From the NCBI GenBank assembly GCA_019056805.1, contig DXJG01000007.1:75513-107512 (forward strand): a stretch of 32,000 bases of DNA, written 5' to 3'. This stretch comes from Candidatus Baldrarchaeota archaeon (GTDB lineage: Archaea > Asgardarchaeota > Baldrarchaeia > Baldrarchaeales > DXJG01). The notes beneath the pieces are model-generated. The model was not told where the DNA came from. It made no database searches and saw only the letters and a list, made by a program, of their open reading frames with translations. This document shows positions 12,922 to 20,957 of the stretch, in pieces (the stretch's first letter is position 1; each line of letters starts with the position of its first letter). Made by a program: the position numbers and the translations under genes.

Positions 12922-13656
12922 ATGATTATTGATGACTTTTTCGAAGGAGTTATGAATTTACTTAAAAAAGTTAAAGAAACCCAAAAAGAAGTTATGCTTA
13001 AAGTAGCAGAACTCATAAAAGACGTACTTAAGGAGGATAAATTGATACATATATATGGATCTGGTCACTCACAGATATTAGCACAAGAGGTATTCTACCG
13101 AGCTGGAGGCTTAGTACCGATTAATGCGATGCTTGATCTAGGAACCTCAGTTTACGCTGGAGCCTTAAAGAGTACATCAGTTGAGAGACTACCTGGTTAT
13201 GGTAAATTGTTATTAGATTACTATCAAATTGAGAAAGGAGACTTACTTATAATAGTATCTAGCTCGGGTATAAATGTTGTTCCGGTCGATCTTGCTTTGG
13301 GAGCAAAAGAAAGAGGAGCAACCGTGGTTGCAATAACTTCTATAGAATTTTCTAAGTCGTCTCCAGCAAGACATTCTTCTGGAAAGAAATTGTATGAAGT
13401 AGCGGACATTGTAATTGATAATTTAGTCCCACCGGGAGATGCTTTATTATCTGTTCCTGGGATAAAAACGAAAATGGCACCAGTATCTACGATAATAAAC
13501 TCTGTGATTCTTCACTCGATACTAAGCATGGCAGCAAAGATATTAGCTGATGAAGGAATCGAACCTCCAGTTTGGTTAAGTGCAAATGTCCCAGGAGGAG
13601 ATGAATTTAATAAAGCGTACGTAAAAAAATACAAGTATCGGATTAAAGCCCTTTAG
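12922..13656 (+). CDS. single-SIS-domain sugar-phosphate isomerase-like protein (UPF0309/SIS_2 type)
   Basis: GSGHSQILAQE, YRAGGL, IVSSSGINVVPVD, VAITS, DNLVPPGDA, SANVPGGD. Start moved to ATG 12922 (GGGAGTGG upstream), 244 aa. Confidence 0.85.
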   Translation: MIIDDFFEGVMNLLKKVKETQKEVMLKVAELIKDVLKEDKLIHIYGSGHSQILAQEVFYRAGGLVPINAMLDLGTSVYAGALKSTSVERLPGYGKLLLDYYQIEKGDLLIIVSSSGINVVPVDLALGAKERGATVVAITSIEFSKSSPARHSSGKKLYEVADIVIDNLVPPGDALLSVPGIKTKMAPVSTIINSVILHSILSMAAKILADEGIEPPVWLSANVPGGDEFNKAYVKKYKYRIKAL

Positions 13657-13680
13657 ATACCGCATTCATAATAATTAGAT

Positions 13681-13700
13681 AAAAGTAGCTTCCTACTTTT
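13681..13700. terminator. stem-loop downstream of the SIS gene (possible terminator)
   Basis: Perfect inverted repeat AAAAGTAG-CTTC-CTACTTTT starting 25 nt after the SIS stop and followed by a pyrimidine tract. The stem is AT-rich and weak. Confidence 0.35.
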
Positions 13701-13777
13701 TCTCTCTTAAAACCTATTTATTATTCTTGAGAATCAAAAAAATATTTGAGGGCTGAATCAAAAGGACATGTCACATA

Positions 13778-13814
13778 TTCGATGATGAAACCTCATTCAG
13801 TTTTCATTATCGAA
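13778..13814. terminator. 13-bp imperfect inverted repeat downstream of the EIIA gene (possible terminator/RNA hairpin)
   Basis: TTCGATGATGAAA (13778-13790) pairs with TTTCATTATCGAA (13802-13814) with one mismatch (G-U if read on the + strand). Lies in the convergent SIS/EIIA gap. Confidence 0.35.
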
Positions 13815-13852
13815 AATATTATGATGTAATTATAAGAGGAGTTAAAACGAAT

Positions 13853-14326
13853 TTAGAGTTTTTCTAGTGCTTCTTTTATATGTTGGTATAATTTATCCAC
13901 AGTTTTTGCTTTTCTCATTTTTTTAATGTTTTCTTCTTTTTGTAGGAATTTTGCCAATTGAGCAATTGCTTTTACATGTGATCTTTTGTCAGTTGTCGTG
14001 AATCCAATTATTATATCTACAGGATCGTTGTCGGGGTTTCCAAAGTTTATTGGATTTTGTAATCTTATCAAAGCTAGTGCTGGTTTCTTGGCACCTTCTT
14101 CTGGTCGGGCATGTGGCAATGCTATCCCCTTTGTTATTACGATATATGGACCCATTTCCTCAACGGTTTTTATCATTGCTTCAATATATTTTGGCTCCGC
14201 TGCATCTATTTTCACTAAAATTTCACCAACTTTGATCACAGCATCTTTCCAGTCCGATACTGGAACATCTATGGCTATAGCTTCTTTCTTTAGGAGATCT
14301 AATAAACTGAATTCTGCTGTACTCAT
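13853..14326 (-). CDS. PTS enzyme IIA, stand-alone (fructose/mannitol/ascorbate-type EIIA_2 fold; UlaC-like)
   Basis: GPYIVITKGIALPHARPEEG with phospho-acceptor His72; L..PINFGNPDNDPV. 157 aa; GTGAG upstream of the ATG. Confidence 0.92.
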   Translation of the reverse strand: MSTAEFSLLDLLKKEAIAIDVPVSDWKDAVIKVGEILVKIDAAEPKYIEAMIKTVEEMGPYIVITKGIALPHARPEEGAKKPALALIRLQNPINFGNPDNDPVDIIIGFTTTDKRSHVKAIAQLAKFLQKEENIKKMRKAKTVDKLYQHIKEALEKL

Positions 14327-18623: not shown

Positions 18624-18650
18624 TGCGGTAGAGTTCATGAGGCGAGTACT

Positions 18651-19178
18651 TTGATTAATATTTATGACTACAGGTTGTTAATTCTCGTTTTAATTGGTTT
18701 TATATTAATTAAAACTCGAGAAATTTATAAGGAAAGGAAAAATTTCAACTCACTAAGAAGAGAGAGAATTTATTACTCTTTCATCCTAGCTAATGCTCTG
18801 AAAGAAACTAAGATATTAAAAAAAGCCAGCTTAACTACTAATGATGTTGAAGTCCTTTTAGAGGCATTTGATAAACTTCCTGAAATAAAGAGCGTAAAAA
18901 CGCTTAAAAAAGCTGTTCAAATATACAAGACATATGTAGCAGAACATCCTACTGTTCATGATGATAAAAAAATTATGAGGCAAAAAATCATTATACCTTT
19001 GATGAAAAAAATCATTGAGCTCTTTACAATTATTGACCCTGAATTATATAGATTAGTTGAAAGAGAAGAAAGTATGTATATTAAGAGAAAAGTTAAACCT
19101 AGAATTTATATCCCTTCTATCCTAGAGGAGATCATTGAGGTCTCATTATCTCGCTCCGAGGTACAGAAAGCTAGCTAA
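18651..19178 (+). CDS. hypothetical protein with a single N-terminal membrane anchor
   Basis: 175 aa, TTG start with GAGG upstream, 27 nt after the EIIB stop. Hydrophobic LLILVLIGFILI followed by a basic, helical body; no recognised motif. Confidence 0.6.
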   Translation: MINIYDYRLLILVLIGFILIKTREIYKERKNFNSLRRERIYYSFILANALKETKILKKASLTTNDVEVLLEAFDKLPEIKSVKTLKKAVQIYKTYVAEHPTVHDDKKIMRQKIIIPLMKKIIELFTIIDPELYRLVEREESMYIKRKVKPRIYIPSILEEIIEVSLSRSEVQKAS

Positions 19179-19195
19179 AATTATAATTTAATCTT

Positions 19196-19882
19196 CTATT
19201 CTAAACTTTTTGCTATTTCAATAATATCTTTGAGAGAGTTTACTACATGCTCTGCTACTTCCCGTGCTTCTTCCGCTCTTTCTTTTCCTAAACCTCTTAT
19301 AACTAGTATTGTTGGTATGCCTATACTTGAGGCGACTTTAATTTCATCGGGTATACTTGAGACCAGTAAAAGGTTCTTGTTACTAAGCCCTATTCTCTCT
19401 ATTACAGTCTTAAGAAATTCTTTGCTAAAACCTCTCATTATGTTAGTGTTTTCTTCGATAAAAACATCATGAAATATGTGAGCTAGCCCTAATGCTATAA
19501 TTTTTTGCCATTGTTTTACTGGAGGGCCAGATGTTACTACGTATAGTTTTAAACCTAGATCTCTAAGATTTATCAATGTTGGCATGGCATCTGGATAAGC
19601 TATAAGGTAAGCTGAGCTGGTTTGTCTATAAGCTTGAACGCCTGCTGCTATGATTCTTGCATCGTACTTTAAGCCGAATGTTTCTAAAAGAAGATCAAAG
19701 TGTTTAGGATAATGATCGCCGTATTTGCGTACTATATCATCAAGTACCTTGTAAGCAACTACAGGATCTATCGGGAAACCCTCAGCTACCATGGCTTTGA
19801 TCGCATTCATTCTTGCAGCACTAAGTTGTAAAGTTGCATCGTAGAGAGTATCCTCAAGACCGAACAATATGGCTTTTTTCAT
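19196..19882 (-). CDS. HAD-superfamily subfamily IA protein (archaeal TIGR02253/PH1655-like) with degenerate catalytic motifs
   Basis: Family-like cap and core (ARMNAIKAM, KYGDHYPKHFD, AAGVQAY, GPPVKQWQKI), but motif I reads FGLEDTL instead of FDLDDTL and motif IV reads VSSIPDE instead of VGD...D. The ATG lies 1 nt after the upstream stop, with a GGTGA RBS. Confidence 0.85.
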   Translation of the reverse strand: MKKAILFGLEDTLYDATLQLSAARMNAIKAMVAEGFPIDPVVAYKVLDDIVRKYGDHYPKHFDLLLETFGLKYDARIIAAGVQAYRQTSSAYLIAYPDAMPTLINLRDLGLKLYVVTSGPPVKQWQKIIALGLAHIFHDVFIEENTNIMRGFSKEFLKTVIERIGLSNKNLLLVSSIPDEIKVASSIGIPTILVIRGLGKERAEEAREVAEHVVNSLKDIIEIAKSLE

Positions 19883-19883
19883 T

Positions 19884-20957
19884 TTATTTCACCACCTTAC
19901 TAAGTTTAGTTGGTTTATCAGGATCTAAACCTCTTAAAACCGAAAGATAATAGGCAAAAAGCTGTAAAACAGGTACATAAATAATTGGAGAAAACACGCC
20001 TGGAAATTTTGGAAGCGATATATTAACATCTGCAATAGGTACGGTTATTTGAGCATCATTAATAAGCATTATGGGTGCATCAAAACTTTTCAACTTGCTA
20101 ATAACCTCTTTAACGGGTTCGACTCCGAACTCACGGTGTGCAAGCACTATGATAAGAGTCTCGGGACCTATCAATTGCATTGGTCCATGGAGAAACTCTC
20201 TTAATGCGAATCCCTCTGAAAACATATTACATGTCTCTTTAATTTTTAAAGCTCCTTCAAGAGCCAAAGGATAAAGAGAACCACTACCTAAAATAAATAT
20301 ATTGTTACTTCTAACAAACTTCATAGCAACCTCTTTAATAATTTCATTAACTTGAGAAATTACATTTTCTACCATTGTAGGTGCATTATTAAGAGAATTC
20401 ATTAATTTTCTATATGTCTTAATGTCAATGGTTTTTGAAATATATGCTAATTCGGTTGCTAGCATTGAAAGCACAAAAAGTTGCGCTGAGTAGGTTTTTG
20501 TTGCAGCTAAAGCACGTTCCTCACCTGCATGCGTTAACAAAACCGTATGAGCTATGTTCGCCAAGGTGCTTTGAGAATTATTTGTGACACCAACAACGTA
20601 GATACCCTTAGACAAACTAGCTCTGACTGCCCTTATTACATCAATGCTTTCACCAGACTGACTAATAGCAATCAAAACAGCTTGTTTGATTTGTTCGGGA
20701 AGCCAAGAGATAAACTCAGAGGCAGGTATTACAGTTGGATAAAAACCCATCAATTTGGAAACAGCATACTGAAAAGATAAGCCAGCATGATAGCTAGTAC
20801 CTGAACCAATAACGTAAAGCAAATCACTAAATCTCAGAGCAACTTCATTAGCAACAACTTTAATAGAATGTTTACTTTCCTTAAGAGTCTCTTCTAAAAC
20901 ACATGGTTCCTCGTAAATTTCTTTTATCATAAAATGAGAATATTCTTTGGAAGCCAT
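19884..20957 (-). CDS. double-SIS sugar-phosphate isomerase/deaminase (GlmS isomerase domain without glutaminase; GlmD/AgaS/FrlB-like)
   Basis: HFMIKEIYEEP, GSGTSYHAG, AISQSGES, GEERALAATKTYSAQL, EGALKIKET, EFLHGP, GLDPDKP. No N-terminal Ntn glutaminase domain. Confidence 0.9.
   Translation of the reverse strand: MASKEYSHFMIKEIYEEPCVLEETLKESKHSIKVVANEVALRFSDLLYVIGSGTSYHAGLSFQYAVSKLMGFYPTVIPASEFISWLPEQIKQAVLIAISQSGESIDVIRAVRASLSKGIYVVGVTNNSQSTLANIAHTVLLTHAGEERALAATKTYSAQLFVLSMLATELAYISKTIDIKTYRKLMNSLNNAPTMVENVISQVNEIIKEVAMKFVRSNNIFILGSGSLYPLALEGALKIKETCNMFSEGFALREFLHGPMQLIGPETLIIVLAHREFGVEPVKEVISKLKSFDAPIMLINDAQITVPIADVNISLPKFPGVFSPIIYVPVLQLFAYYLSVLRGLDPDKPTKLSKVVK

Follow-up and report, generated by a model that had tools for sequence, protein, structure and literature searches.

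Gene content of the locus

The DNA analyzed here, referred to as the window, is a stretch of 32,000 nucleotides from the genome of a Candidatus Baldrarchaeota archaeon (assembly GCA_019056805.1, contig DXJG01000007.1, forward-strand positions 75,513 to 107,512; our contig C15). The genome comprises 1.92 Mb in 18 contigs and is 91% complete. At positions 12922-20957, the window encodes a complete phosphotransferase system (PTS), consisting of EI, HPr, EIIA, a UlaA-family EIIC permease and EIIB, which lies between a gene for a protein with a single SIS domain and a gene for a protein with two (Table 1). The initial annotation had described this bracketing by two SIS genes, and it was confirmed, down to the positions of the open reading frames (ORFs), by ORF listing and family scans.

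The phosphorelay residues can be read directly in the translations: the histidines of HPr (GLHARPA) and EIIA (GIALPHARP), the cysteine of EIIB (ICGVGMGSS) and the histidine region of EI. With a permease of the EIIC-GAT fold, a separate EIIB carrying the cysteine and an EIIA_2 carrying the histidine, the locus has the architecture of the L-ascorbate PTS. EIIA is encoded on the minus strand, divergent from EI, and the minus-strand genes for the HAD-fold and two-SIS proteins converge on an operon of EIIC, EIIB and a 175-amino-acid ORF. The gap between HPr and EIIC (16542-16888) is AT-rich and, at ~350 bp, unusually long; the promoter or regulatory region that controls EIIC-EIIB probably lies within it. 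An Rfam scan of 12000-21500, this gap included, returned no match.

Table 1. Genes of the PTS locus and the models that identify them
Feature	Positions	Strand	Family evidence
Single-domain SIS_2 / UPF0309 (PRK02947) protein, NagS-like	12922-13656	+	SIS_2 145 bits; PRK02947 302 bits (cut-off 135)
EIIA (PTS_EIIA_2, UlaC-like)	13853-14326	-	PF00359 130 bits; 40% identity to E. coli UlaC (tblastn)
EI (phosphoenolpyruvate-protein phosphotransferase)	14501-16252	+	TIGR01417 495 bits (cut-off 342); three PEP-utilizer domains
HPr	16269-16541	+	PF00381 92 bits; TIGR01003 88 bits
EIIC, Asc/UlaA (EIIC-GAT) family	16889-18199	+	PF03611 312 bits
EIIB (PTS_IIB, UlaB-like)	18288-18623	+	PF02302 49 bits
175-amino-acid ORF, no family	18651-19178	+	no Pfam or NCBIfam match
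HAD-fold protein, 228 amino acids, without Asp nucleophile	19196-19882	-	PF00702 45 bits; TIGR02253 127 bits, under cut-off of 170
Two-SIS GlmS-isomerase-like protein, 357 amino acids, no glutaminase domain	19884-20957	-	GlmS model positions 247-604, 275-281 bits

A distinct clade of Asc-family permeases

The window EIIC is only 29.5% identical to E. coli UlaA, compared with 50-61% identity to the members of a clade found in thermophilic bacteria and archaea of about ten phyla, with hosts that include Thermoflexus, Caldanaerobacter, Thermoanaerobacter, Coprothermobacter, Infirmifilum, Desulfurococcales and Thermococcus. On the model for E. coli-type UlaA (NF009549) it fails, scoring 230 bits against a cut-off of 890, and it passes NF006919, a model that is "ascorbate" in name alone (430 bits, cut-off 380). 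Database names of the EIIC relatives are mostly "PTS ascorbate transporter".

In UlaA, ascorbate is contacted by T86, Y87, H135, I136, Q139, H194, Q195, D314, I358, F362 and M410 (PMC6048161). When these contacts were mapped by alignment of clade EIICs with UlaA, H135, H194, D314, I358, F362 and R288 were found to be kept in the window EIIC, and I136 was replaced by Leu. Three substitutions, Q139W, Q195T and M410D, were invariant in all 18 clade EIICs aligned, and T86 and Y87, the contacts in HP1, had no alignable counterpart in the clade. With the Trp and Asp that it has gained, the pocket would favor neutral or cationic sugars over anions, and the added Asp would argue against an acidic cargo, be it a sugar acid or N-acetylmuramic acid (MurNAc).

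To describe the genes that accompany this permease, 74 clade loci from species-representative genomes of about ten phyla, related genomes included, were pulled out with two peptide patterns, and neighboring genes were counted by tblastn and by clustering of all ORFs without overlap filtering. For 31 of these loci, at least 5 kb of flanking sequence was available on each side of EIIC (Table 2).

Table 2. Genes found near EIIC in clade loci
Gene near EIIC	All loci	Loci with full flanks
EIIB	71/74	30/31
SIS_2 (median distance 580 bp)	60/74	26/31
EIIA	52/74	22/31
Amidohydrolase of ~400 amino acids (NagA type)	33/74	17/31
Two-SIS protein	22/74	11/31
HPr	19/74	10/31
EI	17/74	10/31
GntR/UTRA regulator	18/74	7/31
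PRD regulator	8/74	3/31

The association of SIS_2 with EIIC is far above chance. The usual gene order is EIIC-EIIB-(EIIA)-SIS_2-(two-SIS)-(NagA)-(GntR)-(HPr-EI), and the Thermoanaerobacter unit consists of regulator-EIIC-EIIB-SIS_2 alone, which indicates that EIIC, EIIB and SIS_2 form the core of the operon. Of the 74 loci, 20 combine SIS_2 with a two-SIS gene, and 16 have an amidohydrolase as well. The representative amidohydrolase is NagA at the equivalog level (TIGR00221, 344 bits, cut-off 226). For operon-linked two-SIS proteins, the NagB-II, GlmD and GlmS-isomerase models give nearly the same scores, and three Desulfurococcales loci have a full-length GlmS in place of the two-SIS gene. 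No fructosamine kinase or gene for amino-acid handling recurs in the 74 loci. The initial annotation had treated both SIS genes as partners of the permease; SIS_2 proved to be the conserved core partner, and the two-SIS gene of the window belongs to a separate module, which is described below.

Genes for ascorbate catabolism were not found at any level. UlaG, UlaD, UlaE and UlaF are not encoded in the window, and when the whole genome was searched by tblastn with the E. coli proteins as queries, UlaE and UlaF gave no match. A weak UlaD match proved to be a Fae/Hps fusion (NF009833, 566 bits; the UlaD model gives only 50 against a cut-off of 294), and a weak UlaG match was a PRK00685 hydrolase (299 bits; the UlaG model gives only 44 against 306). 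This tblastn search of the 91%-complete genome thus found no true ula gene, and ula enzymes were likewise absent from all 74 clade loci, including the 31 with full flanks. Since ula genes were found neither in the 91%-complete genome nor in the clade loci, and the EIIC pocket is remodeled, ascorbate is very unlikely to be the substrate, in agreement with the initial annotation. The label "PTS ascorbate transporter" is probably wrong for this clade, as the gene contexts of the 74 loci lend the NF006919 name no support.

The locus with the closest relative of the window permease carries two Asc systems. In L077 (127-10179), two different Asc-family EIIC-EIIB pairs lie ~3 kb apart. The EIIC of the first is 85% identical to that of the window and is accompanied by genes for an Amidohydro_2 protein, YjbQ and a two-SIS protein. 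The EIIC of the second is 31% identical and occurs with EIIA, an orthologue of SIS_2, a homologue of the 175-amino-acid protein, HPr and an M20 deacylase. The Amidohydro_2 protein matched only an uncharacterized PDB entry and decarboxylases, which gave no clue to the substrate.

Two SIS enzymes with different histories

Among proteins of determined structure, the single-SIS protein matched 3CVJ (E 3.4e-46) and 9EOL (E 3.6e-44). The latter is SCO4393, or NagS, an N-acetylglucosamine 6-phosphate (GlcNAc-6-P) dehydratase of Streptomycetaceae that was described in 2025 and acts with NagA (PMC12680351; PDB 9EOL, 9F7O, 9F7V). NagS abstracts the C2 proton of open-chain GlcNAc-6-P or N-acetylmannosamine 6-phosphate (ManNAc-6-P), and its H53, R64, E94, D179 and N228 are essential or important (PMC12680351). 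All five residues are kept in the window SIS_2, as are the phosphate serines; S91 is replaced by Thr and G227 by Ala. Among 63 PTS-linked SIS_2 proteins, a set that includes both copies from the source genome, H53, R64 and E94 are invariant, D179 and N228 are present in 62 (the other sequence is gapped) and the position of S91 is mostly Thr.

The window SIS_2 is nevertheless a distant homologue of NagS, with about one third of positions identical by eye, and it neighbors PTS genes and not dmdR1; true NagS proteins share at least 58.7% mutual identity and a divergent synteny with dmdR1 (PMC12680351). Three NagS homologues with 26-36% identity showed no dehydration of GlcNAc-6-P when assayed in vitro (PMC12680351). 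Since the NagS machinery is kept and distant homologues are inactive on GlcNAc-6-P, the substrate or the reaction outcome of SIS_2 probably differs. Elimination of a 3-O-substituent (an etherase reaction), dehydration and 2-epimerization are all plausible by analogy, and we propose that SIS_2 processes the sugar 6-phosphate made by the PTS. MurQ belongs to a different SIS family, and its model gives no match to SIS_2. Of 20 genomes that carry the operon, 6 also encode a true MurQ and 14 do not; this count, taken without a base rate, at most mildly weakens the idea that SIS_2 substitutes for MurQ. The nearest named homologues of SIS_2 are from Candidatus Njordarchaeales (69-71% identity), and in a quick tree the window protein falls in a Njordarchaeales group, nested among PTS-linked sequences.

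A second SIS_2 paralogue in the same genome is linked to a different kind of permease. On contig C18 (L081, 7903-13746), a mannose-family PTS consisting of EIIA-man, EIIB-sorb and a fused EIIC-EIID shares its operon with this paralogue, and the operon is flanked by genes for NagA (405 bits) and a ceramidase-like amidase. As the link between SIS_2, NagA and a PTS recurs with a permease of an unrelated family, SIS_2 seems to be tied to N-acetyl amino-sugar phosphates rather than to the Asc permease. EI and HPr were seen in the window only, with neither at the C18 locus, and the mannose-family PTS presumably relies on those of the window.

The two-SIS protein matches PDB 1MOQ (E 2e-46) and keeps T302, S303, S347, Q348, S349, K485, E488, H504 and K603 of GlmS, with T352 changed to Ser. 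It lies below the equivalog cut-offs for NagB-II (NF046059, 146 against 430 bits), GlmD (NF041128, 126 against 580) and FrlB (NF008481, 38 against 430). It has no glutaminase (GATase) domain, and no GATase ORF was found upstream of its gene. A separate full-length GlmS is encoded on contig C9 (795 bits), which indicates that the two-SIS protein is not the biosynthetic synthase. By its sequence, it would be an extra, glutaminase-less paralogue of the deaminase/isomerase type and is a candidate glucosamine 6-phosphate (GlcN-6-P) deaminase/isomerase. On its upstream side, a gap of 360 bp separates the two-SIS gene from an aldehyde:ferredoxin oxidoreductase (AFOR) gene at 21318-23494 on the minus strand, which is preceded by a poly-ferredoxin gene; the linkage of AFOR to the PTS does not recur in other loci.

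Its closest relatives, of ~355 amino acids and 43-49% identity, are found in Nitrososphaeria, Bathyarchaeia and Thermoprotei. In all six archaeal loci examined (L092, L093, L094, L097, L098 and L099), the two-SIS gene overlaps a gene for the same HAD-fold protein; in the window, the two genes are 1 nt apart, the HAD-like gene following the two-SIS stop. Motif I of the window HAD-like protein reads FGLEDT (FGLxxTLYD across the pair family) in place of the DxD motif of HAD phosphatases, and Gly replaces the Asp nucleophile in 6 of 6 orthologues, which share 52-58% identity. A GlmU-like gene lies directly upstream of the pair in four of the six loci, with a NagA-like gene downstream in three of those four, and in the other setting, seen in 2/6 loci, the pair is found amid housekeeping genes such as those for TruD and a tRNA synthetase. 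One pair-bearing relative, G301, also has a full-length GlmS. These features mark the pair, as far as gene order and residues can tell, as an old, self-standing archaeal amino-sugar module, and its two proteins may be the subunits of a single amino-sugar-phosphate enzyme. A complex prediction for the two proteins gave a score of 0.00, which is no verdict either way. By this comparison, the two SIS genes, to which the initial annotation had given a joint role, are not equivalent partners.

Substrate, rival readings and origin of the system

If the substrate is not ascorbate, what does the system import? We think it somewhat probable that the cluster is a self-sufficient PTS whose permease, from a distinct Asc-family clade with a remodeled pocket, carries a neutral amino sugar of the N-acetyl-hexosamine type. 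An N-acetyl amino sugar is the best reading because NagA, GlmS/NagB-II-like two-SIS proteins and GntR/UTRA regulators recur at clade loci and because SIS_2 resembles NagS. The initial annotation had suggested an amino sugar or an Amadori product; the recurring NagA, deaminases and GntR/UTRA regulators uphold the former, and the FrlB score speaks against the latter. Within the preferred class, ManNAc or another neutral N-acetyl-hexosamine fits both the pocket and NagS chemistry. MurNAc fits the logic of the enzymes but is weighed down by the coexisting MurQ and the added pocket Asp.

In the pathway that we envision, EIIC and EIIB would import the sugar and phosphorylate it at C6. The NagS-like SIS_2 would act on the open-chain 2-acetamido sugar 6-phosphate, abstracting the C2 proton, with elimination at C3 or re-protonation to follow. 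Such a reaction, of the etherase, dehydratase or 2-epimerase type, would yield a standard intermediate such as GlcNAc-6-P, from which the NagA encoded on contig C18 would take off the acetyl group. A GlmS-isomerase-like two-SIS enzyme would then convert GlcN-6-P to fructose-6-phosphate and ammonia; here this would be the neighboring 357-amino-acid protein, possibly with its HAD-like partner. The substrate class, the SIS_2 reaction and the participation of the window two-SIS protein are what we infer from these contexts, the last of them from proximity, the position of the two-SIS gene in L077, the 22 in-operon cases among the 74 loci and the shared amino-sugar theme.

Several observations weigh against an N-acetyl amino sugar or against this pathway. 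The inactivity of distant NagS homologues on GlcNAc-6-P has been mentioned, and orthologues of SIS_2 at 60-82% identity occur in related archaea with no EIIC nearby. The window two-SIS protein shares only 22-34% identity with those of PTS operons, its gene is convergent with the PTS operon rather than co-transcribed with it, and none of the six other archaeal loci examined has a PTS beside the two-SIS/HAD-like pair. NagA is encoded on C18, beside the mannose-family PTS, and not in the window cluster. At L080, where EIIC is 78% identical to that of the window, no SIS gene lies within 10 kb, and the neighbors are instead a DHDPS-family aldolase and a GFO/IDH/MocA oxidoreductase. The minimal operon of Thermoanaerobacter would also fit a plain hexose-6-phosphate isomerase. 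In addition, the counts from the 74 loci are of non-independent samples.

Could the cargo contain no nitrogen? It is conceivable that the PTS imports a non-nitrogenous sugar, a sugar acid or a lactone, that SIS_2 supplies glycolysis directly, either as an ordinary aldose-ketose isomerase or as an enzyme that binds 6-phospho-aldonates, and that the amino-sugar genes of some loci are secondary additions. The Thermoanaerobacter operon, with SIS_2 as its sole enzyme gene beside EIIC and EIIB, would be so explained, and the neighbors of EIIC at L080 and at L077 point the same way, as the Amidohydro_2 family (PF04909) includes lactonases and decarboxylases. Aldose-ketose isomerization is the ancestral SIS reaction, and UlaA's own ligand is a lactone. 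Tight binding of 6-phosphogluconate by NagS (PMC12680351) can be counted on the same side. We nonetheless regard this reading as unlikely, given NagA at the equivalog level in 33/74 loci (17/31 with full flanks), NagB-II/GlmS-like proteins in 22 and GntR/UTRA regulators in 18; moreover, the sole characterized member of the SIS_2 family works on N-acetyl-hexosamine 6-phosphates, and M410D would be unfavorable to an anionic sugar acid. A fructoselysine-like Amadori or glycation product, with the two-SIS protein as an FrlB-type deglycase, is highly improbable. Transporter-linked deglycases with two SIS domains or one are known (FrlB, GfrE/F and FraB), in systems that can include GntR-type regulators such as FrlR, but the two-SIS protein, at 38 bits on the FrlB model and 275-281 on the GlmS isomerase region, keeps all GlmS catalytic residues, K603, E488 and H504 among them. 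In addition, NagA, the extra enzyme found most often, plays no part in Amadori catabolism, and neither a fructosamine kinase nor an amino-acid handling gene recurs. A genuine ascorbate PTS, with its catabolic genes either among the 9% of the genome that was not assembled or replaced by unrelated enzymes, has next to no chance of being correct. Its merits are the 430-bit score on NF006919 ("PTS ascorbate transporter subunit IIC", cut-off 380), the half of the ascorbate contacts that are kept and a genome that is just 91% complete; these are set against 74 clade loci devoid of ula genes, three invariantly changed contacts, a conserved partner that resembles NagS and an NF006919 name for which we found no experimental basis.

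A further alternative touches the second SIS gene only and is compatible with an N-acetyl amino sugar as the cargo of the permease and SIS_2. The two-SIS/HAD-like pair could be an unrelated resident module, for example one for glycan synthesis whose amino-sugar enzyme interconverts GlcN-6-P and galactosamine 6-phosphate (GalN-6-P) or depends on ammonia, with the PTS and SIS_2 alone making up one system. ST2245 of Sulfolobus tokodaii, which is GlmS-like and glutaminase-less, is reportedly a GlcN-6-P/GalN-6-P epimerase. We see this as a real possibility that falls short of an even chance. The pair is maintained with overlapping genes in 6/6 archaeal loci that lack a PTS, near GlmU-like (4/6) and NagA-like (three of those four) genes or in a housekeeping setting (2/6), and in the window it is convergent to the PTS operon. 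However, the orthologous EIIC-EIIB of L077 is likewise met by a convergent two-SIS gene, a different and non-orthologous one that is paired with YjbQ; two-SIS genes are in the operon at 22/74 clade loci; and full-length GlmS is encoded in both the source genome and G301, so the pair is not the primary synthase. That all parts hold together, namely an acquired PTS, an Asc clade switched to an N-acetyl amino sugar, an undescribed NagS-like reaction (etherase, epimerase or lyase on an N-acetyl-hexosamine 6-phosphate) and a two-subunit enzyme made of the two-SIS protein and a dead HAD protein, we consider doubtful.

How does the proposed system compare with those already characterized? With the E. 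coli ula regulon it shares the EIIC-GAT fold, the architecture of EIIC, Cys-EIIB and His-EIIA_2 and the residues H135, H194, D314, I358, F362 and R288. It differs in the ~30% identity of EIIC, in Q139W, Q195T, M410D and a divergent HP1 loop, in encoding EI and HPr within the cluster, in having a NagS-like protein as constant partner and in the absence of the lactonase, decarboxylase and epimerases from the genome searched. SIS_2 and NagS (SCO4393) have in common the UPF0309/PRK02947 family, the catalytic residues and a recurrent pairing with NagA, but SIS_2 is not an orthologue (<58.7% identity), is linked to a PTS and not to dmdR1, and has Thr for S91 and Ala for G227. In E. coli, murQ-murP encodes a MurNAc PTS and a MurNAc-6-phosphate etherase that feed NagA and NagB. 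The logic of a PTS permease tightly coupled to one SIS-fold enzyme, which converts a modified N-acetyl-hexosamine 6-phosphate to GlcNAc-6-P for NagA and a deaminase, is the same, whereas MurP is a glucose-family EIIBC and MurQ belongs to another SIS family. Like GlmD and NagB-II, the window two-SIS protein has two SIS domains, ~330-360 amino acids, the GlmS isomerase residues and a genomic association with amino-sugar uptake and NagA. It is, however, nearer the C-terminal half of GlmS, and its family is always coupled to a HAD-like gene that lacks the nucleophile, a coupling that, to our knowledge, has not been described for GlmD or NagB-II. The mannose-family aga/gam regulons (AgaS, AgaA) also combine a PTS with a deacetylase and a SIS deaminase/isomerase, and C18 has a PTS of that kind, but the window permease is of another family, the AgaS model gives just 49 bits (cut-off 529) and no tagatose-phosphate kinase or aldolase was seen.

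The distribution of EIIC points to its origin. It was found in none of four other genomes of the same order, and in only 2 of 300 sampled genomes of the phylum, as distant homologues at 32-34% identity; a survey published in 2021 listed no PTS proteins for the Asgard genomes (PMC7997004). This rarity, together with the survey, suggests horizontal acquisition, and the window PTS was probably acquired in this way, the spread of EIIC being suggestive of a recent event. The source genome itself has archaeal hallmarks, such as the Fae/Hps fusion and an archaeal PGI/PMI. The presence of an Asc-type PTS in Thermofilum pendens was not confirmed.

The 175-amino-acid protein appears, from its few relatives, to be a lineage-restricted family associated with PTS genes. 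It is all-helical, with a hydrophobic N-terminal helix (AlphaFold 2 pLDDT 89), and it has no fold match in the PDB; a feature search of the Atlas (0.86) was uninformative. Only 16 relatives were found among 1.84 billion representative proteins. Homologues at 39-41% identity lie beside PTS genes at L077 (8099-8629), L080 (11756-12238) and L088 (8433-8918), and the family, of 160-176 amino acids on Njordarchaeales-like contigs, has the hydrophobic N-terminal helix in two of four copies. Elsewhere in the window, the gene at 6238-9438 (minus strand) encodes a 1066-amino-acid protein that combines a clostripain (C11) peptidase domain with a carboxypeptidase-regulatory-like domain at the C terminus.

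Should the cargo be an amino sugar, the current name of this permease clade gives a wrong metabolic prediction in hundreds of genomes. An N-acetyl amino sugar as cargo would extend the Asc family to a new class of substrates and, if SIS_2 catalyzes an undescribed reaction, would open a new entry into amino-sugar catabolism, common to bacterial and archaeal thermophiles from about ten phyla. The SIS_2 enzyme family has a single characterized member, the 2025 enzyme NagS, and the operon context provides a shortlist of substrates for permease and enzyme alike, and the clade operon is carried by cultured organisms, including Thermoanaerobacter, Caldanaerobacter, Thermanaerothrix, Fervidicola and Rubrobacter. 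For archaeal biology, the window adds a self-contained PTS that presumably serves two permease families in a lineage for which the 2021 survey had listed none (PMC7997004), and its distribution suggests that horizontal acquisition would have brought a capacity for scavenging to the archaeal host.

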